Assembly (NCBI GenBank): GCA_963765495.1
Contig: CAVXWP010000016.1
Coordinates: 64,001 to 128,000, forward strand
Direction: 5' to 3'
DNA from: Blastocatellia bacterium
GTDB lineage: Bacteria > Acidobacteriota > Blastocatellia > UBA7656
DNA length: 64,000 nt
Under the pieces are notes generated by a model that made no database searches, had not been told where the DNA came from, and saw only the letters and a list, made by a program, of their open reading frames with translations. This document shows, in pieces, positions 27,101 to 64,000 of this stretch. The translations under genes and the position numbers were made by a program. The stretch's first letter is position 1; each line of letters opens with the position of its first letter.

Positions 27101-27222
27101 TGATGCGTGATGCGTAATTCGTGATGCGTAATTCGTGACGCGTGATTCGTGATTTTCAGGCGATTGACTTTTTATCGCCCGAACCGTCTTTTGCACGGCT
27201 CACGCATCACGCGTCACGCATC
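27101..27222. repeat. Inverted TGATGCG/CGCATCA heptamer arrays (nuoD-nuoH spacer)
   Basis: tgatgcg tgatgcg taattcg tgatgcg taattcg tgacgcg tgattcg ... tcacgca tcacgcg tcacgca. Confidence 0.9.
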
Positions 27223-28437: not shown

Positions 28438-29559
28438 TTACCGTCTTTCAGCATACTTCACATCTATCAGGCTCGTGTCGTAATCGACCTCTCGATAGTC
28501 GAGATGTTTATCGGTCCATTCGTTGTCGCGATACTCTATCGGGTAATCTTTGCGAAGCGGATAACCGGGCCAGTCGGGCGGCATAAGTATACGGCGCAGG
28601 TCCGGGTGGCCTTCAAATCGTATGCCGAACATATCAAAGACCTCGCGTTCCATCCAGTCTGCGCCCGCCCAGATCGAAACGACGCTCGGAGCGGCCTCGC
28701 CTTCGGCGATAGCCGTCTTGACGCGCAGCCTCCGGTTTTTCGGCACGGAATAAAGGTTCACGACTATATCGAACTCCTGTCCGGCGCGCTCCGGCCAGTG
28801 AATCGCCGTCAAATCCGAACACATGTCAAAAAGCGATTCGCTGTCGTCGTGCAGGAAGCGGCAAAGTTCGAGGTAAGACGAGTTTTTGACAACCACGATC
28901 TGCTGAGAGTGAGTGGCCACGGTTTCGGTTATCGCGTCTTTGAACTTCTGCTTTAATCGGTCGATGAGCGGATCGTCTGTGATCTCTACGGTGACGACCG
29001 GCCCCTTTTTCGGCGGCGGCCTTGGCGGCGCGTGACCGGCTGCCCCGGCGGCTTTTGGAGGCGCGGGCCTCCCGGCAGCGGGCGCGCGTGGCGGCGGCGC
29101 GGGCTTTGCAGCAGCGGCCTCTTTTGGTGCTGCCTCTTTTGATGGAGCCTCTGCCGTTGGAGCCTCTTTTTGAGGAGTCTCTTTTTGAGGAGTCTCTTTT
29201 TGAGGAGTCTCGGGCTTGCCCTCTTCGGAAGCGCCTTCGATTGTGGGCGTAAGCGAAGGTTTTTCCACACCGGGCAACGCCTGTTCGACCTTGGCTTCGG
29301 TTCTGGGTTTCTCTCCGAGTGGGAGCGTGGGCTTGATCTTTGCCTCAAGCTCTTCGGCCGGGTGCTCGCTTCCGGCAATGGCAGGAAGCGGAAGAGTCTG
29401 TTCGGGAACTGGTGCGCCTACCTCTTCTTTGGCATCCTTGCCCGCCGCTTCGGGAGGTTTTGGCAGAGACGCCATCTCTCTCGTCTTTTCGGCTTGTTCC
29501 TCTTCGCGCCCTTTGTCACTCGGCTGATTTTCCGATGTATCCTTGGATTCGTCTGACAT
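28438..29559 (-). CDS. nuoC: NADH-quinone oxidoreductase subunit C with long low-complexity N-terminal extension
   Basis: C-terminal [35 protein letters not shown]; N-terminal ~190 aa rich in E/P/K/A. Confidence 0.92.
29166..29210. repeat. In-frame 15-bp perfect tandem repeat x3 encoding ETPQK
   Basis: ctttttgaggagtct x3. Confidence 0.9.
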
Positions 29560-29750
29560 TTTAATGTAACCCGAAACACGGCGCGCAGGCATCTAGCGTG
29601 CGCGCTGTAACTATTAGAGCTTCGTATGTGACTTCTCTAAGAAAAGATTTTGCTGCCAGCCGGAATGCTTTTAGCACAGGGGTCAAAGCGTTGTCAATCT
29701 GAGCGTTAGAAGGTGTGGCAAATCAATGCGAGTAAAGGCAATTACACGGC

Positions 29751-31070
29751 TCAGGCGCTTACAGGAATCTTGCTCGCCTCTTTGCCGCGTTTTTCGTCTA
29801 CGAACGCAAGCAAGATCATGCCCACGACAAAAAACGCGCCTATAGACAAAATAGCCGGGCGCTGGTTGCCGGTCAGGTTCGAAACGGTTCCGAATATGAT
29901 CGGGCCGAGGAAGGCCAGCGCCTTGCCCGCTATTCCCAGAAAACCGAAAAACTCGGCTGAGTTCTCTTTTGGCGTAAACAGCGCAAGCAGGCTGCGCGTG
30001 ACCGACTGGCACGAGCCTATGCCTAAACCGGCAAGCGCCGCCACAACATAAAAGCTTGTCTTTGAATAAGAGAAGTATGCCAGCACAACGGCGGCAATCC
30101 ATATTGTGAGCGAAATAAATATAGTCCGTTTCTGCCCTATGCGGTCGGCAATAAATCCGAACGAGAAAGCGCCCGCAGCCGCGACCACGTTCATGGCTAT
30201 AAACATAACGGTGATCTCGGTAGTCGTAAATCCTATGGTCTCGCTCGCATAAAGCGCGGCGAAATATATCACCGTCACGATGCCGTCATTGTATACAAGA
30301 AAAGCTATGAGGAGTTTAAAGAGTTCACTGTAGCGGCGAATATGACCAAATGTTTGCTTGATCTGGCGAAACCCTACGGTGAGGTAACTCTGGCCCGGCG
30401 GCAGCGTTTGAGCCACGCTGCGGTCGCGGAGAAATAAGAATGTCGGGATGACGGCTACGGAGTAATAGACGGCCACGACAACCGGGATAAGCCGGGCGAG
30501 CGATAGTTGTTCAGAGGTCGGATTTTCAACTATGTTTCCCACCAGAGGCAGACACAATGCTGTGGCTACAAGACCGCTCGCGTACCCCATGCCCCATTTC
30601 AAACCGGAGATTCGACCCGCGTTTGATTCATTCGAGATGCCCGGCAGAAAGCTGTCAATGAATACGCCGCCGCCTGCAAATCCTATGTTGGCGATTATGT
30701 AGAGCGCAAGCCCGAGCGCCACCATTCCCGGCCCTACGAAATAAAGGGTCGCCGTAAAAAAGACTATCGTCAGTGCGCAAAAGCCCAGAAACTTTTTGCG
30801 ACTGCCCGAGAAATCGGCTATCGCTCCGAGTATCGGCGCAAGCAACGCCACTACGACTTCCGAAACGGAGGCCGCAAGCCCCCAGAGGAAATCGGCGTTG
30901 AATCCCCAGGGTCGGGATTCCCCTACGACGATCTTGCTGAAGTAAGGCGCATAGAGCGCGGTTACGATGACGGTAGTAAAAGCCGAATCCGCCACGTCAT
31001 ACATGCACCATCCGAGGATTTCTTTTTTGGTGACGGGCGGTGCGCCGGCCAGTTCAGTGCTTGTTGCCAT
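29751..31070 (-). CDS. MFS transporter (UMF1/Atg22-like)
   Basis: GWCMYDVADSAF, APILGAIAD, YNDG, RSLLALFTP..SAEFFG; ~12 TMs. Confidence 0.88.
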   Translation of the reverse strand: MATSTELAGAPPVTKKEILGWCMYDVADSAFTTVIVTALYAPYFSKIVVGESRPWGFNADFLWGLAASVSEVVVALLAPILGAIADFSGSRKKFLGFCALTIVFFTATLYFVGPGMVALGLALYIIANIGFAGGGVFIDSFLPGISNESNAGRISGLKWGMGYASGLVATALCLPLVGNIVENPTSEQLSLARLIPVVVAVYYSVAVIPTFLFLRDRSVAQTLPPGQSYLTVGFRQIKQTFGHIRRYSELFKLLIAFLVYNDGIVTVIYFAALYASETIGFTTTEITVMFIAMNVVAAAGAFSFGFIADRIGQKRTIFISLTIWIAAVVLAYFSYSKTSFYVVAALAGLGIGSCQSVTRSLLALFTPKENSAEFFGFLGIAGKALAFLGPIIFGTVSNLTGNQRPAILSIGAFFVVGMILLAFVDEKRGKEASKIPVSA

Positions 31071-31158: not shown

Positions 31159-31746
31159 CTACTTCGAGGGCGCGTAATAAGGGTTTTGACCCGACTGATG
31201 ATCGGTCGTATCGAGCACTTCGCGCACCTGCGGCACGTGCTCGCGGATCAACCGCTCGACTCCCATCTTCAGGGTGACATCGGCTGCGCCGCAGCCCTGA
31301 CATCCGCCGCCCATTCTTATGTAGACGTTGTCATCCTGCACGTCAAGCAACTCTACGAATCCGCCGTGAGACGCCACTCCGGGGTTGATCTGTTCATCTA
31401 GCACCTGCTGGACCCTCTGCCTTACCGCTTCTGAGGGCAGGCGGTCGCCTTCGGTAATTTCGGGCGGCGGGTTGAGGTGATAGCGAATCGCAGTTCCAAT
31501 ACGCTTCCCGATCTGTCGCCAGTCCTGACCGCCCTGCTGAGTGACCGACACCTGATTGTTGTCGACCTCTACTTTGGCGATGCCGGGAATCTTGAAAATC
31601 CTGTCGGCCAGATCGTTCTCTTTGGCATCATTCGGGTTGTCGAAAGCCGCCGAACCCTCATAGACGGGCCGGTCAACCGTAAAGTGGCAGACCTTTATGT
31701 CTTGCTGGTCTACGCTGGCTCTGATTTGAATATTGTCTGCGCTCAT
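31159..31746 (-). CDS. NfuA/NifU-family Fe-S cluster carrier (Nfu-N scaffold plus NifU-C)
   Basis: INPGVASHGGFVEL, GGGCQGCG, DTTDH..GQNPYY. Confidence 0.9.
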   Translation of the reverse strand: MSADNIQIRASVDQQDIKVCHFTVDRPVYEGSAAFDNPNDAKENDLADRIFKIPGIAKVEVDNNQVSVTQQGGQDWRQIGKRIGTAIRYHLNPPPEITEGDRLPSEAVRQRVQQVLDEQINPGVASHGGFVELLDVQDDNVYIRMGGGCQGCGAADVTLKMGVERLIREHVPQVREVLDTTDHQSGQNPYYAPSK

Positions 31747-31825: not shown

Positions 31826-31890
31826 ATTAGCCACGGAGGCACAGAGGCACAGAGAAAAGATTATAAAAACTCTGTGTCTCTGTGGCTAAT
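31826..31890. repeat. Inverted 8-mer (GCACAGAG) array hairpin
   Basis: attagccacggaggcacagaggcacagag ... ctctgtgtctctgtggctaat. Confidence 0.85.
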
Positions 31891-31936: not shown

Positions 31937-33394
31937 TCAAATCCCCGCTCTCTTTTCAAGGGGACCAAACTGGTCCCGCGTGGGCTCCGCTCAGCAGAAC
32001 CACGCTTCGGTAAGCCTTGGCGGGCGCAAGTTGAGCGGCACGGTAGGCTTCGGATGTCGAACAGGTTCCCCGCTCCCGCAAACCTCGTATGCAATCTCAC
32101 GCACTCGATAAAACGTATCCCGCGCGTCTTCACCCGTGCGCGCGGCCTGCTCGACCGTGCGCGCCACCTGCGCGTGCAACGCGTCCATGCGCGGGTCCGT
32201 GTGCGCCCACTCATAGGTAAAGGATTCCTGAACGAGCGGACCCAGCCACTTTTCGGCATCGGGCTGATTCAGAAGAAGAGAGCCGGGCGGGATAAGCAAT
32301 CGAATGCTGTACTGCACAGGGTCTATGTGATAGATCAACCCGCGCGCTTCCACGAAATCGAGCACCTCGATAAAATCGTCTATCGAAGTCCAGGGCGTGA
32401 ATGACACAAAGGAAGGTCTGAGAGCCACCCCGGCCTGTTCGAGAATATCGAAAGCCTCTTCGACCTCTGCCCGCGTGTGGCCCTTTTCAAGGCGTTTGAG
32501 CACCCTATCGCTCAACGATTCAACCGCCGAGACTACAAACAGACAGCCCGTCCGGGCAAAATCGGCTATCATCGAGCGGTGCTTGATTATGTGCTCGACC
32601 TTGGCCGTGAAATCATATGAAAGGGTGGGAAATTCGTCATGCATGGCCTGCGCGATGCGGAGCGAATGAGTGGGGCCGTTAAGAAAATCGGGATCGCCGA
32701 AGGTTATATGACGAGCGCCCGCCGAGACTAAATTTCGAATATCTTCGAGAACTACGGATTGCGGCACTACAAAAAAGCGGCCTTCGTAAACAGGCGGTAT
32801 CGGGCAGTGCGTGCACATGTGCAGACAGCCCCGGCTCGCCTCGGTGTATCCTACAAGCCGCTGCTCGTCTTCGCGTTCCAAACGGGCGTACCGCTCAAGC
32901 GGCGGCAACTTGCCTCTTCCGGGCACGGCAAAAGGCAGACGGGTAAGCACAGGAGAAGCCGCGTGAGTCTTTGTCCTTACTCCTTCGATACTGACAGGCC
33001 CAATAGCATCGAGCGATTTGATGAGAGCAACGAGCGCCTGTTCAAATTCGCCGCCGATTATGGAATCGGCTACGGTTTCGAGCAGGTAATCTGCGTTGAG
33101 CGATGCGTACATTCCGTAAAAGCAGATATGACACTCGGGATTTATGCGGCGAATCGCCTCGGCTACGCGCAGGCCCAGACGCAACGCCGTGTGCATAGGA
33201 ACCGATAGCCCCACAAACCGGGCGCGGCGCGCTTTCTCCTCGTCGAAGCCTTCGACCGATACATCCATCGCTTCGGCCTCGTAGCCCGCTCGTTCAATCA
33301 ACCCCATCGCCGTGGCGATCCCCGAGGGCTGATGTCCAAGCTCGTAGCAGGAGACAAGCAGTATCGGGGTAGATATGGTTTCTGATTCTGTCAT
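31937..33394 (-). CDS. CUAEP-tail B12-binding/radical SAM selenoprotein (in-frame TGA at 31991..31993 probably Sec)
   Basis: N-terminal cobalamin-binding-like domain (YELGHQP), SRGCLHMCTHC (CxxxCxxC); 3' end reads EAWFC-TGA-AEPTRDQFGPLEKRAGI*, with a hairpin after the TGA. Confidence 0.88.
31961..31977 (-). promoter_or_regulatory. Putative bacterial SECIS hairpin
   Basis: mRNA UGA-GCGGAGCCCACGC-GGGACCA-GUU-UGGUCCC: a perfect 7-bp stem with G in the apical loop, 20 nt downstream of the UGA. Confidence 0.72.
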
Positions 33395-33421
33395 AGTCAA
33401 TAATTATGGTAAGCCCCGCGT

Positions 33422-33475: not shown

Positions 33476-34708
33476 TCACTCTATCACAAATTCTATCCTT
33501 CGGTGCGCCTCGCGCAGAGCGGCTTCTGCCCGGTCGGGTGTTTCGGCGCGAGCGAAGATGAAGCCCAGATAACTCGCGCCTTCGGGCGGAGGCAATAACT
33601 CTTGAGTGACGTGCGCGGTGATTATCACATCCTCGATCTCTTCGACGGCCCCGGCTTCATCGAGCCCTCGCACCTCTTTCAATATGCCGCGCCGGGGAAT
33701 CGGTATCATCATCACTCCCGCAGCGAGGTTTTCGCGTTCGACCCCGTCTACATCGCGACCGAGAGCGTGTCGAAGTATAAGGTCTTCGAGAGAGAGACTT
33801 GCGCCGAAGCGCAAGGTGCGGGCACAGAGGCCGCCGATTGCGCGAGCGGCTACCTCTATCACCCATGCGCCCATTTCGTTTACGCGGAGTTCGGCGTGCA
33901 CGGGGCCGCGCGTGAGCCCTAAAGCGTGCGCGGCCCGGGCTGTGGTGTCCGCTATCCGGTTTTGGACCGGCTCGGGCAATCGCGAAGGCGTGACATAGAT
34001 AGTCTCTTCAAAAAACGGCCCGTCGAGCGGGTCGGGCTTGTCGAATATCGTAAGCACTCGAAGCCTTCCGTCTGTAAGCAAGCCTTCAAGGGCTACCTCG
34101 CGACCGGGTATGAATTCTTCGGCGAGCACGTCTCGCGCCGCCTCCCGGCCACGTCTTTTAATATCGGGGCTTTCCAGTATCGCTTCCAGCCGCCTGACTG
34201 CCGCCGTGAATTCATCCACATTATCGGCTCGCATCACACCCCGGCTGGTTGAGAGAAAGACCGGCTTGACTACACACGGATAAGAGATGCACCGGGCAAT
34301 CTCTGCCGCATCGTCATCGAGCGTGAAGTGCCAGTAATGCGGAATCTGTACATTTGCGCGATTGAGACGCTGGCGCATAAGGAATTTGTTTTTTGCGGCC
34401 TGAACGGATTCGACCGAGTTGTGCGCCAGGTTGAGCGCGCGGGCTATGTGGGCGGCTACGACGGCCGTGTCTTCATCTACGGGTATGATCGCGTCAATCG
34501 GATACTCTTCATTGAATCGGGCGGCCTGCCGGGCCGCGTGTTCGGGATCGAGAAAATCGAGCGTGAGCAACTCCGAAGGATTCTTTGCGGCAAGCGTACT
34601 GGGCCTTTCAGATGCGGCGACAATATCTGTGCCCGCGCGAAGCGCTGCATCTATAAACGCCTTTGTGCGGTACGTCGTAGTGGGAAGCAGCAATAAGAGT
34701 CTCGGCAT
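33476..34708 (-). CDS. ATP-grasp domain protein (carboxylate-amine ligase-like)
   Basis: KNKFLMRQRL, YPCVVKP...SRGV, EEFIPGRE, HAELR, IEVAAR. Confidence 0.9.
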   Translation of the reverse strand: MPRLLLLLPTTTYRTKAFIDAALRAGTDIVAASERPSTLAAKNPSELLTLDFLDPEHAARQAARFNEEYPIDAIIPVDEDTAVVAAHIARALNLAHNSVESVQAAKNKFLMRQRLNRANVQIPHYWHFTLDDDAAEIARCISYPCVVKPVFLSTSRGVMRADNVDEFTAAVRRLEAILESPDIKRRGREAARDVLAEEFIPGREVALEGLLTDGRLRVLTIFDKPDPLDGPFFEETIYVTPSRLPEPVQNRIADTTARAAHALGLTRGPVHAELRVNEMGAWVIEVAARAIGGLCARTLRFGASLSLEDLILRHALGRDVDGVERENLAAGVMMIPIPRRGILKEVRGLDEAGAVEEIEDVIITAHVTQELLPPPEGASYLGFIFARAETPDRAEAALREAHRRIEFVIE

Positions 34709-39730: not shown

Positions 39731-39818
39731 ATTTGAGATTTGAGATTTGAGACTTGAAATCTCATTCTCAAATCTCAATCCCATATCCCAATCTCAAATT
39801 TCAGATCTCAAATCTCAA
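39731..39818. repeat. Inverted TTGAGAT/ATCTCAA heptamer arrays
   Basis: atttgagatttgagatttgag ... atctcaaatttcagatctcaaatctcaaa, directly after the LLM stop. Confidence 0.9.
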
Positions 39819-39822
39819 ACAG

Positions 39823-50378: not shown

Positions 50379-50824
50379 GATTGATGCTCCTTTTCTTTAT
50401 TCTCGGTCCTGAACTTCGATACTGGCTATACTAAAGAGCTGACGGCTGTGGCGTTACGCCGGCTTATTCCCTGCCCATGGTTGCCGCCTTTCGTTGGCCT
50501 TTCGACGCTCACACTATGCCGGAACGGAGCAAGAAATACATCACGAGATTGAGTGTTTTTATGCTACCACCTTTGACAGCCTGCGAGATACCACTATCGT
50601 AGTAGGAGAGAATGACACAACGCTGCCGCCGAGCCGCAACAGAGGTGAAGGTGCGGCACGACAGGCAAACGTGGCTCAAGGTGGCACGGGAGGGTTTTGC
50701 CAGGGGGCAGCACAAGTTTGCCTTTTGGGGTGAATCAAGTATATCAAAGCCAAAACTATCTAAAGCTTTCCGGCAAATTCTGAGGTAAAACGAGGGAAAC
50801 AGAACGCGAGCAGGGCCAAGAGTT

Positions 50825-51046
50825 CAGGGCCATTCAGTTCTTGAGTTGAGGGCAATAGGCGGAAAAAATATTAAAAGTTGAGTTGACGCAAAGGCGAGTT
50901 GAAATAGGCCGCGGATAACGCGGATCGAGCGGATCTACGCGGATTAGCTCATATATGTTCAGATCCGCGAAAATCCGTCGCATCCGCGTACGTCCCGGCC
51001 TATTTCCCTTATCCCTTTCTACATGTTGGAAAACTGAATGACCCTG
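50825..51046. mobile_element. 222-bp non-autonomous MITE with CAGGG termini (ISAs1-like) and 9-bp target-site duplication
   Basis: TIRs CAGGGCCATTCAGTT / AACTGAATGACCCTG (14/15); CCAAGAGTT at 50816..50824 and 51047..51055. Confidence 0.85.
50901..51006. mobile_element. 106-bp palindromic element, copy 2, nested in the MITE
   Basis: GAAATAGGCCGCGGAT...GGCCTATTTC. Confidence 0.8.
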
Positions 51047-51149
51047 CCAAGAGTTAACGAAAAATTAAAACGGAGGTAATACCCGTCTAATCTGTCTGAG
51101 TTATGATGATAATCGCAGGAAACCAGAGCAAGGGGAAGGGATTGGAGCG

Positions 51150-51383
51150 GTGTCAAAGATTTTGAAAAAGATTAAGGCAAGGCTTGAGCGAGAGGCCAGA
51201 GAACATGTCGAAAGTATCAGGCAAGCAGTTGGACAGTATAAGACGGCCGTTGAAGGTGACGGACCGAAGGATGCCTCGTTTCAGCAGGCTAACCAACAAG
51301 AGATCGAGCACGCCGTAGCCAATTTCCTGCGATTGCATAAGACGCTCAAACGGCTCCGCAAGAAAATGCGAGCCGACAAGTAA
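51150..51383 (+). CDS. Small hypothetical helical protein
   Basis: RBS GGAG before GTG; 77 aa; no recognised family. Confidence 0.6.
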   Translation: MSKILKKIKARLEREAREHVESIRQAVGQYKTAVEGDGPKDASFQQANQQEIEHAVANFLRLHKTLKRLRKKMRADK

Positions 51384-51421
51384 ACGACATAAGTTCTAAT
51401 ACCGATAGTGCGAGGTAAACG

Positions 51422-51826
51422 ATGCTTGATAAGAGGTTCACGATTGACGGGTGCGCGGCCGATCTGGAGATGGCTCGCAAGGCGCTCGATCACCTGACGC
51501 GAGATCAGAAAGCTGCCGACGAGCAGATTCATAAGGCAGCCGTTCACGCCAAGAAGATCGAAGTAAAACTAGCTTCCGCAAAGCTCGCTCAGGCCGAATA
51601 TTATCTCTCTTCTTTAATGGCGCGCATGGATTATCTGGAAGCGCGTTGCGCCCGCGAGGAGGGCGCGACAAGAGCCGAACAGGAGGAACTGGCCTGGGCG
51701 CATCAGGCACTCCCGATAAACAGCGCTACCGTCAGCAGACTCGCCGACGACCTGGCACAGCGCAAGAACGAACTGGCATCCCTGCTCAAACAGCAGCAAG
51801 TAATTTTGTATGCTCGCCATCTGTAA
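51422..51826 (+). CDS. Hypothetical coiled-coil protein
   Basis: RBS GAGGT; 134 aa helical. Confidence 0.65.
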   Translation: MLDKRFTIDGCAADLEMARKALDHLTRDQKAADEQIHKAAVHAKKIEVKLASAKLAQAEYYLSSLMARMDYLEARCAREEGATRAEQEELAWAHQALPINSATVSRLADDLAQRKNELASLLKQQQVILYARHL

Positions 51827-52290
51827 TCACGGTTGACACTCTACGGAAGATCATAACAACCCCCGGTTAAAACGTCTGCGCGACGTTTCTCGCCCGAAGC
51901 AAAATAGATACTTAATCAGAAGAATTACTCCGAGCTAAAATCTCTTCGGTTGGGTTAATGGGAGGATGGTGGAACAGGGAGGTGAGTGCTAAGGCCTGTT
52001 CCACCATTGGAGGTCACCGTGGTTGCGCGGTATTTCGTGTCTCCAGCTTGCCGCGCATCCGTTTATGAGGTACCACAACATCCTGGAAGTTGATTGCAAT
52101 ATAACCCGGGTAGATTAGATTTAGGTTACTCAAAGATTAAATTCTTATGAAAACTCTCGAGTGAAAACCCTCATGGCGCGTATCGAACAGCCCGCAATTA
52201 TGCAGGCCATAATTACACAGGTCACAATTATACGCGCTCGTCTGAGCCGGCGTAATTTGCGGCCTATTTCAAAGGATGAGCAATTGAGAA

Positions 52291-52503
52291 TTATGTGCTC
52301 GGCGAAGCTATGCTGTGCGTGGCTGTAGCGCCTGCCTGCCGCACAATCATATGAGCGTCCACGTAAAGAAGCTTTGTTTGAAGCGCTCCGATCTCTTCGG
52401 AGGTCAGTCCTCCGCTGTTTTTTATCTCTGCCACAACCTGCGCATATTCTTTAAGGGGCTGATTGAAATATGCATTCAACAGCTTATCGATCCTGCTGGC
52501 CAT
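52291..52503 (-). CDS. Small hypothetical protein
   Basis: RBS AGGAG before ATG; 70 aa. Confidence 0.6.
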   Translation of the reverse strand: MASRIDKLLNAYFNQPLKEYAQVVAEIKNSGGLTSEEIGALQTKLLYVDAHMIVRQAGATATHSIASPST

Positions 52504-52638
52504 TTTTATGCTCCTGCTGCAATTTTCACTTCTTTGGTTGCTGCTTTATCAGATCGGTAAGATAGCCGCGCCGCAACCGATTGTCAATGTCTCGGGCTAT
52601 CGCGCAAGGCTCAGGGATCGCCGATTGTTCCCTGCCGG

Positions 52639-52671
52639 AAAATAAAAGGAACGGCCCGCCTGGACCGTCCC
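52639..52671 (-). terminator. Intrinsic terminator after the ompA-like gene
   Basis: Minus strand GGGACGGTCC-AGGC-GGGCCGTTCC-TTTTATTTT. Confidence 0.75.
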
Positions 52672-52742
52672 TGTTCGGAGGCTATTATGTAAATGATCAA
52701 ACGGGGGAGTCTGGTTCTAGCCGCTCGATCATTTGAAGAGGG

Positions 52743-56829: not shown

Positions 56830-56891
56830 GAATTTGAGATTCGAGATCTGAAAACTCAAAACTCAAAATTCAAAACTCAAAACTCAGATTC
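56830..56891. repeat. Hybrid GAGATTT/CTCAAAA heptamer hairpin abutting the slt stop codon
   Basis: gaatttgagattcgagatctg aaaactc aaaactc aaaattc aaaactc aaaactc agattc. Confidence 0.85.
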
Positions 56892-62982: not shown

Positions 62983-64000
62983 ATGAGCCGTATTAAATCT
63001 GTTATGGTTGCCGCCGCTGTGCTTTTGAGCCTCGCTACGCAAGCGAGTTCACAGGATAAACCTGACGCGTCCGAACTGCTCAAGCGGGTCAGTAAAACGT
63101 ATAAGAACCTCAAGAGCTATCACTTCGAACTGCTCTCCGTGACCGAGTCAACCATAACCGGCGAGCGGGTAAAGCAGACCTCGGAATCGGAGCAGCGAAT
63201 AGTATCGGCAGCCGCCCCTCACGACAGGTTAAGGATCGAGGTGAGCAACCCTTATCTCACGGTAACGGCGATCTCTGACGGCAAGATGGAGTGGATATAT
63301 TTACCCGGACTTAACCAGTACACGGTTGCGGCTACCGGAGAAAGCGATGTAGATGAAGGTGGATTAATCGCCTCGTTTACCTCTCAGGCGCTCAACCTGG
63401 TTTCCTCTTACGAGCATACATTTGAGCGATTGAAAGAGGCTGACATCAAACGTGAAGAGACAATCGAGGTCAACGGACAACAGATACCCTGTTATGTGGT
63501 CGAAGGCACATACAAAGACAAGTCCCCCTCGGTTGAGCCGCCAAGTGTGAGCTATTGGATAGACAAAACCAGAAACATCATTCTGCGCGAAATCGACGAG
63601 GTCAAGACCAAAACGCCTTACGGCAGCCTTATGCAGACAAAGACGACGACCAGGTTCACCGTGGCCAGCATAGATAAACCTGCGCCCGATGATCTGTTCG
63701 CCTTCTCTCCGCCTGCGAGCGCCGAAAAGGTCGCGGAGTTGAATCTGCCGGGAACAAATCGTCCGGCATCGAGAGCCTCTGAGATGGCTGGCAAACAGGC
63801 CGAAGATTTTACGCTTGAAGACCTCAAGGGTCAGCAAGTCAGCCTGAAGAGTTTGCGAGGCAAGGTGGTGTTGTTGAACTTCTGGGCAAGCTGGTGCGGC
63901 CCCTGCCGCGTTGAGATGCCCAACCTTGAAAAGCTACATCGCGAGTTCAAGGATAAAGACCTTGTTGTTTTAGGCATCAACACAGAAGAGGCTGAAAACG
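62983..64000 (+). CDS. Exported LolA-like/DUF2092-type domain fused to a TlpA/ResA thioredoxin domain (3' end runs off the window)
   Basis: Manual translation from ATG 62983 (RBS AAGGAG): signal peptide, ISDGKMEWIY, WIDK, then DFTLEDLKG..GKVVLLNFWASWCGPCRVEMP. Not in the ORF track. Confidence 0.85.
   Translation, partial: MSRIKSVMVAAAVLLSLATQASSQDKPDASELLKRVSKTYKNLKSYHFELLSVTESTITGERVKQTSESEQRIVSAAAPHDRLRIEVSNPYLTVTAISDGKMEWIYLPGLNQYTVAATGESDVDEGGLIASFTSQALNLVSSYEHTFERLKEADIKREETIEVNGQQIPCYVVEGTYKDKSPSVEPPSVSYWIDKTRNIILREIDEVKTKTPYGSLMQTKTTTRFTVASIDKPAPDDLFAFSPPASAEKVAELNLPGTNRPASRASEMAGKQAEDFTLEDLKGQQVSLKSLRGKVVLLNFWASWCGPCRVEMPNLEKLHREFKDKDLVVLGINTEEAEN

Follow-up and report, generated by a model that had tools for sequence, protein, structure and literature searches.

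A UGA codon in a Blastocatellia CUAEP/CCAEP-tail radical SAM gene very probably encodes selenocysteine

Does a radical S-adenosylmethionine (SAM) enzyme gene of a Blastocatellia bacterium end where its open reading frame (ORF) stops, or does translation pass that stop codon and add a short tail? The question is raised by a 64,000-nucleotide stretch of contig CAVXWP010000016.1 (GenBank assembly GCA_963765495.1, positions 64,001 to 128,000 of the forward strand), hereafter the window, which was analyzed as a whole and is numbered from its first letter. On the minus strand, the ORF running from 33400 to 31994 ends in ...PRLTEAWFC and is followed by TGA at 31993-31991, past which the frame stays open for 17 sense codons (GCG GAG CCC ...; AEPTRDQFGPLEKRAGI) up to a TGA at 31939-31937. 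The first-pass annotation of the window had described this frame, with EAWFC-TGA, 17 sense codons, and a second TGA, and all of its coordinates were reproduced. Read through, the gene comprises 487 codons from a TTG at 33400; the public prediction starts at an ATG at 33394. In the predicted protein, a B12-binding-like domain at the N terminus precedes a radical SAM core (C192-x3-C196-x2-C199) and a tail that would read ...LTEAWF-C469-U470-AEP...; the protein matches the Protein family (Pfam) models PF04055 (48.6 bits) and PF02310 (36.9 bits).

When searched against NCBIfam, the protein matched model NF040546, named 'CUAEP/CCAEP-tail radical SAM (seleno)protein', with 702.4 bits if read through and 680.4 bits if truncated at the TGA (cutoff 500). 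The read-through alignment paired residues 13-479 with model positions 1-467 of 468, whereas the truncated form reached position 457 only; the extension thus adds 22 bits and 10 profile positions. The score above the equivalog cutoff, the C-[U/C]-A-E-P tail, and the CxxxCxxC core behind an N-terminal B12-binding-like domain all place the predicted protein in this family. Homologous loci were taken as the best 80 of 211 relatives, one genome per species and with their flanking DNA, the source genome not being among them; the nearest of the 80 are metagenome-assembled genomes (MAGs) of Blastocatellia, at 64-69% identity. The sequence WF-C-[Cys or TGA]-A-E-P was present in all 80 loci, with TGC as the second codon in 62, TGT in eight, and TGA in ten, eight of the latter from Acidobacteriota (L001, L002, L004, L005, L007, L039, L067, and L080) and two from Planctomycetota (L010 and L012). 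In an alignment of 37 sequences, the invariant residues included the three cluster cysteines, E465, W467, F468, C469, C/U470, A471, E472, and P473, while the consensus had no majority residue over about 20 positions preceding PRLTEAWFCCAEP, marking a poorly conserved linker.

The codons beyond the TGA were compared among the nine Blastocatellia-type genes that carry it. Of the 17 variable columns in this stretch, 12 are third, four are first, and one is a second codon position, and all nine genes stop at the same place, with TGA, TAA, or TAG. These sequence comparisons show clear selection on the reading frame past the UGA. Two marks of a bacterial selenoprotein, an in-frame UGA that aligns with Cys (here in 70 of 80 loci) and a reading frame conserved after it, are both found at this locus.

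A hairpin at 31977-31961 starts 13 nt after the UGA, within the codons for R-D-Q-F-G-P. Its stem is a perfect one of 7 bp, or one of 6 bp if the loop is taken to be AGUUU, and its position means that the loop begins 20 nt after the UGA, with G as its first base; spacing, loop position, and first base had all been noted in the first pass and were recovered on the minus strand. According to the available text of a 2026 review (PMC13188914), the model for a bacterial selenocysteine insertion sequence (SECIS) calls for an upper stem of 4-16 bp, an apical loop of 3-9 nt with G in the first two loop positions, a distance of 16-37 nt from the UGA, and a minimum free energy of at most -7.5 kcal/mol. 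The window hairpin, whose geometry the first-pass annotation had found to fit a bacterial SECIS, agrees with this model on every point: its stem of 6-7 bp carries a loop (A)GUU(U), of 3-5 nt and of the N-G-U-N-N type, the spacing is 19-20 nt, and the minimum free energy is -11.8 kcal/mol. For the 21-nt hairpin piece, which gave this energy, z was -3.3, and one of 200 shuffled sequences folded as well. The hairpin exceeds chance, unlike the open extension alone, since at least 15 codons precede the next stop in six of the 16 other TGA-terminated genes in the window. A search of the whole window against Rfam at gathering thresholds returned no match, and around the site at E <= 10 no SECIS family appeared, only sub-threshold matches to microRNA precursors (at a palindrome at 31826-31890) and to one internal ribosome entry site.

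The hairpin was next compared between the 11 TGA genes (the window and the ten TGA loci) and the 70 Cys genes (the remaining loci). Generic hairpin energy proved a weak discriminator between the two forms, after which a register-fixed test for the 6-bp helix was adopted, which was possible because the region has no insertions or deletions. At least five of six core pairs were formed in all 11 TGA genes (seven with six of six) and in two of the 70 Cys genes, namely L022 (6/6) and L026 (5/6). In the 11-sequence TGA alignment, the helix was paired in 87% of cells, compared to 18-70% when the 3' partner was slid by one to three columns; with six Cys-type neighbors in place of the TGA loci, pairing fell to 49%. 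Compensatory changes between Acidobacteriota and Planctomycetota occurred in three pairs (G-C to A-U, A-U to G-C, and C-G to U-A), the Planctomycetota rows encoding TEGQLDP in place of TRDQFGP. None of 500 shuffles matched the observed pairing or covariation score, and 71 of 500 matched the number of double-change pairs. In the Cys-type Blastocatellia genes, the 5' arm (TRDQ) is kept and FVTL replaces FGPL, which destroys the 3' arm; these genes fold at 0 and -2.9 kcal/mol.

From these comparisons, the UGA at 31993-31991 very probably encodes selenocysteine. It would be decoded under the direction of the small SECIS hairpin that lies within the coding sequence 13 nt downstream, giving a product with the tail ...WF-Cys-Sec-Ala-Glu-Pro... 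that ends 17 residues later; if selenium were lacking, translation would halt at the UGA and leave a tail-less, presumably inactive enzyme. The proposal of the first pass that this is a true selenoprotein is supported, as far as sequence can support it, by the alternation of Cys and TGA, the invariant AEP, and a covarying hairpin that tracks the TGA. The vicinal Cys-Sec pair may, as the first pass also suggested, serve as a redox or metal-binding arm. The homolog alignment bears out what that proposal had predicted, Cys (70 loci) or TGA (10 loci) at the codon and AEP after it; had homologs ended at WFC with no conserved AEP, the case would have been lost, and the tail is kept in 80 of 80.

Several observations count against a selenocysteine codon. 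No selA, selB, selD, or tRNA-Sec gene lies within the 64-kb window, and no tRNA gene of any kind was found in the window or in the ten TGA loci. In its 67-nt context, the excess stability of the hairpin is modest, with z = -1.55 and 14 of 200 shuffles as good. Folding of the 48 nt following the codon separated the groups weakly, the 11 TGA genes having a median z of -0.83 and the 70 Cys genes one of -0.03 (Mann-Whitney p = 0.02), and 18 of the 70 Cys genes have some hairpin of at least 6 bp in the SECIS distance range. An A.C mismatch interrupts the stem in four of the 11 TGA genes, among them L002, the only one of these four that was folded, whose 21-nt piece reaches -6.4 kcal/mol, short of -7.5. 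Finally, the double changes are confined to the two Planctomycetota rows and so may reflect a single evolutionary event.

The distribution of the two forms was examined on a tree of the protein part preceding the tail, built by a quick method from 80 rows (L062, a partial match, was omitted) with Shimodaira-Hasegawa-like approximate likelihood ratio (SH-aLRT) support. The window protein falls within a Blastocatellia clade of 12 rows, nine Sec and three Cys (support 98), nearest to L001, L080, L002, and L039. The Sec/Cys label requires at least three changes on this tree, two of which are forced by well-supported branches. One of the two Cys genes with the register-fixed helix, L022 (7389-7409, a Longimicrobiales MAG, codon TGC), has a perfect 6-bp in-register hairpin with the same CAGUU loop, at -7.1 kcal/mol (z = -2.3). 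SECIS fossils are described in the available part of a 2006 survey (PMC1794560), and this hairpin is probably such a fossil, left by a switch from Sec to Cys.

In databases, the TGA form is mostly present in cut form. Of the 120 closest proteins in a large protein collection, 107 end exactly in ...WFC, 12 continue as CAEP, and one as CSEP, so the TGA form is the rule in this clade and is truncated by gene callers; the window protein's own public entry is the 467-residue form ending in WFC. The closest named database relatives (67-70% identity) bear the NF040546 name and include one Blastocatellia '(seleno)protein' entry. The family is large, with at least 8000 candidates at E <= 1e-20 in the protein collection, and a search of solved structures with the radical SAM enzyme returned one distant radical SAM match (9ccb, E = 1e-5). 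In the literature searched, the CUAEP/CCAEP motif is named in one relevant paper only, the Haft 2022 preprint (10.1101/2022.07.06.499078), the available text of which mentions the family and the CU motif and terms the family uncharacterized; the main text of the 2026 selenoproteome review contains no mention of NF040546 by name. The B12-binding radical SAM family with a CUAEP/CCAEP tail that the first-pass annotation had described thus exists under that accession, while its word 'hidden' overstates the novelty, as NCBI already names the family a (seleno)protein. The gene is an ordinary member of a catalogued, curated selenoprotein family, and because that family is already curated and in print, the finding is already known: the selenocysteine call adds nothing beyond NCBIfam NF040546 and the Haft 2022 preprint. 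The 2006 survey, in the part available, reports selenoproteins in some Acidobacteria, which is uninformative for the source genome, and the literature search found nothing relevant joining Chloracidobacterium and selenocysteine.

What the enzyme does was approached through its genomic context (Table 1). Homologs of the neighbors were counted in the fetched flanks by tblastn, as ORF clustering suffered from the long antisense ORFs of high-GC genomes and was dropped. The ATP-grasp gene had homologs in 56 of 80 loci and the nfu gene in 58; where the flanks reached at least 3 kb in each direction (56 loci), the former was present in 43, the latter in 44, both in 40, and neither in nine. The nfu gene lies downstream and co-directional in Acidobacteriota and Ignavibacteriota, divergent and upstream of the ligase in most Actinomycetota and Chloroflexota, and convergent and downstream in Microthrixaceae-type loci (Actinomycetota). 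Since the arrangement varies by lineage, functional linkage is favored over inherited synteny. The major facilitator superfamily (MFS) transporter gene, which comes after nfu, had homologs in 11 of the 80 loci, every one of them from the Blastocatellia clade, four at 77-83% identity and seven at 31-34% on the other strand. A PPK2 gene and a GT9-like gene upstream had no counterpart in any of the 80 loci and for this reason were not counted in the system. The closest solved relative of the ATP-grasp protein is the L-amino acid ligase BL00235 (3VOT; E = 8.7e-43, residues 47-406), which makes Met-Gly and Met-Met according to the available text of PMC6920838. We infer the link of the ligase to the radical SAM product from gene order only.

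Table 1. Coordinates of the features considered in the 64-kb window
Feature	Position	Strand	Basis or remark
Full-length CUAEP-tail radical SAM selenoprotein gene (very probable)	31940..33400	minus	NF040546, PF04055, and PF02310 matches
In-frame UGA, very probably read as selenocysteine (residue 470)	31991..31993	minus	Cys/TGA alternation at this codon in homologs
SECIS-type hairpin GGGACCA-GUU-UGGUCCC	31961..31977	minus	Folding, register-fixed helix, compensatory changes
Predicted true stop codon TGA, 17 codons past the Sec codon	31937..31939	minus	Frame translation
ATP-grasp enzyme, L-amino-acid-ligase type (ATP-grasp_4 + LAL_C2)	33476..34708	minus	Directly upstream, co-directional
Nfu-type Fe-S cluster carrier (Nfu_N + NifU domains)	31159..31746	minus	Directly downstream, co-directional
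Atg22-like MFS transporter, possible exporter	29751..31070	minus	PF11700, 218 bits
Heptamer array pairs	11788-11825/11898-11938; 23828-23856/23877-23908; 24359-24389/24459-24488; 35572-35605/35679-35711; 46854-46884/46969-47001		
Further heptamer arrays	27101-27153; 39757-39819; 56851-56886		

A Cys-form member 53.6% identical to the window protein is encoded on the megaplasmid of Thermomicrobium roseum DSM 5159 (NC_011961.1; L081, 6509-10855). It is flanked by a divergent pyridoxal-phosphate-dependent aminotransferase gene and a convergent MFS transporter gene, with no ATP-grasp or nfu gene within 8 kb. This cultured organism is a practical source of the Cys-form enzyme for biochemistry.

The second-best NCBIfam model for the window protein is that for ArsL (NF040542), with 344.1 bits, below the cutoff of 450, and with residues 13-419 only; the alignment to ArsL ends at residue 419-420, short of the tail. 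An RCCLKC-tail (ArsL-family) protein of Alicyclobacillus is 38% identical over 417 residues. To our knowledge, no sequence signature exists for cleavage of the C-gamma-S bond of SAM. ArsL converts SAM to methylthioadenosine and a 3-amino-3-carboxypropyl species and makes a C-As bond, the As(III) substrate is bound by its CCxxC tail at the C terminus, and removal of the tail abolishes product formation while SAM cleavage is kept, as stated in the available parts of two reports (10.1101/2024.02.01.577332, 10.64898/2026.04.29.721666). In the literature searched, the RCCLKC motif is named in ArsL papers only. Identification of the window protein as ArsL itself was rejected, as its score is too low, its tail motif is a different one, and an arsenic context is lacking, with no ars genes among the window ORFs.

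By analogy with ArsL, the [4Fe-4S] cluster of the window enzyme would cleave SAM, whose 3-amino-3-carboxypropyl group would pass to a soft acceptor atom that the vicinal Cys-Sec (or Cys-Cys) tail holds. The product would be a methionine- or glutamate-like amino acid, which the neighboring L-amino-acid ligase would couple into a dipeptide; since an ArsL-type product would be methionine-like, it would match the substrate of a BL00235-type ligase. The Nfu protein may load or repair the Fe-S cluster of the radical SAM enzyme, and in Blastocatellia the MFS pump may export the product. Drawn from homology and gene order, this picture of an ArsL-like enzyme with a Cys-Sec tail holding the acceptor atom, feeding a ligase and serviced by Nfu, is put forward tentatively. 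The explanation that we favor is regarded as likely when taken as a whole, its selenoprotein part being very probable and its ArsL-like mechanism less likely than not.

The points that speak against an ArsL-like mechanism are of two kinds. The first concerns the likeness to ArsL: the model score is below cutoff (344 versus 450), the tail differs from RCCLKC and lies about 50 residues further from the core, ArsN1, AhpD-like, and GTP-binding genes gave no matches in 81 sources, and an ArsM-like methyltransferase was found in only four of the 81. The second concerns the context: neither neighbor is present in the fetched flanks of 16 of 80 loci, including both Planctomycetota Sec loci, and in an Ignavibacteriales MAG (L014, 1346-10339) the gene for the CCAEP radical SAM protein is part of a suf operon, in the order sufC, sufBD, sufS, NifU_N-type scaffold, A-type carrier, radical SAM, nfu, zinc-type alcohol dehydrogenase, and ATP-grasp ligase. 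Given this setting, a sulfur- or cluster-related role also fits.

In thioredoxin reductase, a C-terminal GCUG acts as a redox arm, and on this model the Cys-Sec pair of the window protein, with selenocysteine inserted, could be a redox-active selenenylsulfide arm that delivers or removes electrons or hydrogen, or resolves a covalent intermediate, and holds no substrate atom. We consider this a possible but rather unlikely account. A vicinal C-U pair on a C-terminal extension past a poorly conserved linker is what such an arm would look like, no metalloid genes are nearby, and exchange of Sec and Cys is typical of redox sites according to the available part of PMC1794560; against this, the Cys tail of the nearest characterized relative binds substrate and is not a redox relay in the available ArsL texts, the available text of Haft 2022 ties CU motifs to heavy-metal and organometallic chemistry, and no conserved thioredoxin-like or reductase partner adjoins the gene.

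Alternatively, the tail, again with selenocysteine inserted, might take a cluster or persulfide from Nfu, the enzyme inserting sulfur (or selenium) at the expense of a sacrificial cluster that Nfu rebuilds, for which lipoyl synthase with NfuA offers a precedent. The linkage of Nfu, seen in varied arrangements and several phyla at 58 of the 80 loci, and the position of the L014 gene between the sufA-like gene and nfu within sufC-sufBD-sufS-sufU are in its favor. It is nevertheless improbable: the only invariant ligands in the tail are two vicinal thiol/selenol groups, cluster delivery is needed by any radical SAM enzyme, the equally conserved L-amino-acid ligase is left unexplained, and the ArsL tail, in the available texts, binds no auxiliary cluster.

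That the TGA is a genuine stop, giving a tail-less 469-residue protein (a nonsense allele or a natural short form) with an incidental hairpin or one serving mRNA stability or termination, is very improbable. Gene callers do annotate it so, as in the stored 467-residue form, and no Sec-machinery gene was found in the 64-kb window. TGA is also more frequent as a stop there (17 of 39 genes) than TAG (14) or TAA (eight), so it is not reassigned, and extensions of at least 15 codons follow six of the 16 other TGA stops. Yet the TGA and a conserved 17-codon extension that varies at third positions recur in nine Blastocatellia-type genes and two from Planctomycetota, every Cys homolog keeps the tail with C-C/U-A-E-P invariant, and, according to the available ArsL texts, tail loss abolishes product formation there. 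The hairpin, in turn, tracks TGA and not Cys, has no U-run after it, and was not called by a terminator scan. Least credible of all is read-through of the UGA by near-cognate Trp, Cys, or Arg insertion without Sec machinery, for although a selected post-UGA frame and the lack of that machinery in the 64-kb window would suit such a full-length non-selenoprotein, it would leave the conserved hairpin, with its SECIS geometry and G-U loop motif, without a function, TGA is the normal stop of 16 other window genes, and NCBI curates the family as a selenoprotein.

Returning to the ArsL-like mechanism, it is conceivable, though on present evidence unlikely, that the ligase/radical SAM/Nfu module makes an undescribed amino acid by ArsL-type transfer onto a soft atom other than arsenic (S, Se, Sb, or Te), followed by dipeptide formation. 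Among soil bacteria, the three-gene module has a wide distribution in Acidobacteriota, Actinomycetota, Chloroflexota, and Nitrospirota. If the proposal were true, the module would be a second and far more widespread branch of a noncanonical chemistry of C-heteroatom bond formation for which arsinothricin is as yet the one known case, and selenium would tune or gate that chemistry in the Sec-bearing lineages. For annotation, public entries cut at the UGA lose a part of the enzyme that, by analogy with ArsL, may be essential. The family is large and common in soil phyla; two testable leads to its reaction are the conserved ATP-grasp and Nfu partners, and an ATP-grasp ligase gene that also stands beside ArsL-type genes.

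The second lead was pursued in ArsL-type plasmid clusters. RCCLKC-tail radical SAM genes accompanied by an ATP-grasp gene were seen on plasmids of Alicyclobacillus (L082), Bacillus cereus (L083), Priestia (L084), and Pantoea (L086), that is, in four of the five clusters examined; the arsQLM cluster of Pseudomonas amygdali (L085) is without one. On the three Bacillota plasmids the ATP-grasp gene sits after a small AhpD-like gene, and in the Alicyclobacillus and Pantoea clusters an MFS transporter gene and arsM adjoin. The Alicyclobacillus ATP-grasp protein is 26% identical to that of the window (E = 6e-23) and has counterparts in 50 of the 81 sources, with none for the arsenic-specific genes of its cluster and four for the ArsM-like gene. 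Because an ATP-grasp gene accompanies ArsL-type genes, the arrangement suggests a peptide-linked product for some clusters of the arsinothricin type; two ArsL papers searched for the term 'ATP-grasp' (PMC8552651 and 10.64898/2026.04.29.721666) do not use it in their main texts.

Further observations were made in the window. When its ORFs were read with TGA as U, no convincing candidate for a second selenoprotein was found. A ResA/TlpA-like ORF at 62983-63999 on the plus strand, which runs off the window end, gave a weak match to a WAxxUGC selenoprotein model and was rejected, as it has WCGPC, the Cys form; it encodes a thiol-disulfide oxidoreductase whose N-terminal part is LolA-like. At 31826-31890, where a spacer separates the stop codon of the radical SAM gene from nfu, lies a long imperfect palindrome of CACAGAG(G/A) units. 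A 17-nt pattern of these units matched three times in the window, all at this site, with none expected by chance, and the sub-threshold microRNA-precursor matches there point to a long hairpin; a promoter-like site, TAGCCA-17-TATAAT, overlaps the palindrome. Intergenic tandem heptamer arrays of three to nine copies, often in inverted pairs 50-110 nt apart, are scattered over the window and are reminiscent of the short tandemly repeated repetitive (STRR) heptamers of cyanobacteria. Repeats of TGATGCG, as in these arrays, also come after the radical SAM gene at two related loci, L005 and L008. A region of about 2.3 kb (50380-52740) contains no ORF of at least 150 residues in any of the frames, nor does one arise if TGA is read through; its ORFs are small, none exceeding the 134 residues of that at 51422-51826, and Rfam gave no match at gathering score. 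In a NuoC-like ORF of 384 residues (28438-29592, minus strand), the NuoC domain covers residues of about 200-355 only, and tandem repeats of 15 nt at 29117-29211 overlap the N-terminal part; either the start is perhaps annotated too far upstream or the protein has a repetitive extension.

Compared with known systems, the L-amino acid ligases BL00235 and BacD resemble the product of the neighboring gene only, which shares their LAL_C2 domain. Other CU-motif selenoproteins listed in Haft 2022 (HgcA, SAO-locus proteins, MerT-family members, and KCU-star) share the vicinal Cys-Sec dipeptide and nothing else: their folds and pathways are unrelated to those of a radical SAM enzyme, and they too are often truncated at U in databases. 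The available text of Haft 2022 (10.1101/2022.07.06.499078) suggests that the CU dipeptide interacts with a heavy-metal atom. ArsL resembles the window protein in its two-domain architecture, its Cys-rich C-terminal tail, and an adjacent ATP-grasp gene and transporter, but the window tail is WFCUAEP, not RCCLKC, an extra linker sets it about 50 residues further from the core, and the window family has an Nfu partner, Sec in some members, and no ars context. With the NF040546 family the likeness extends over the whole length, domains, core, and tail alike, with no difference of substance.

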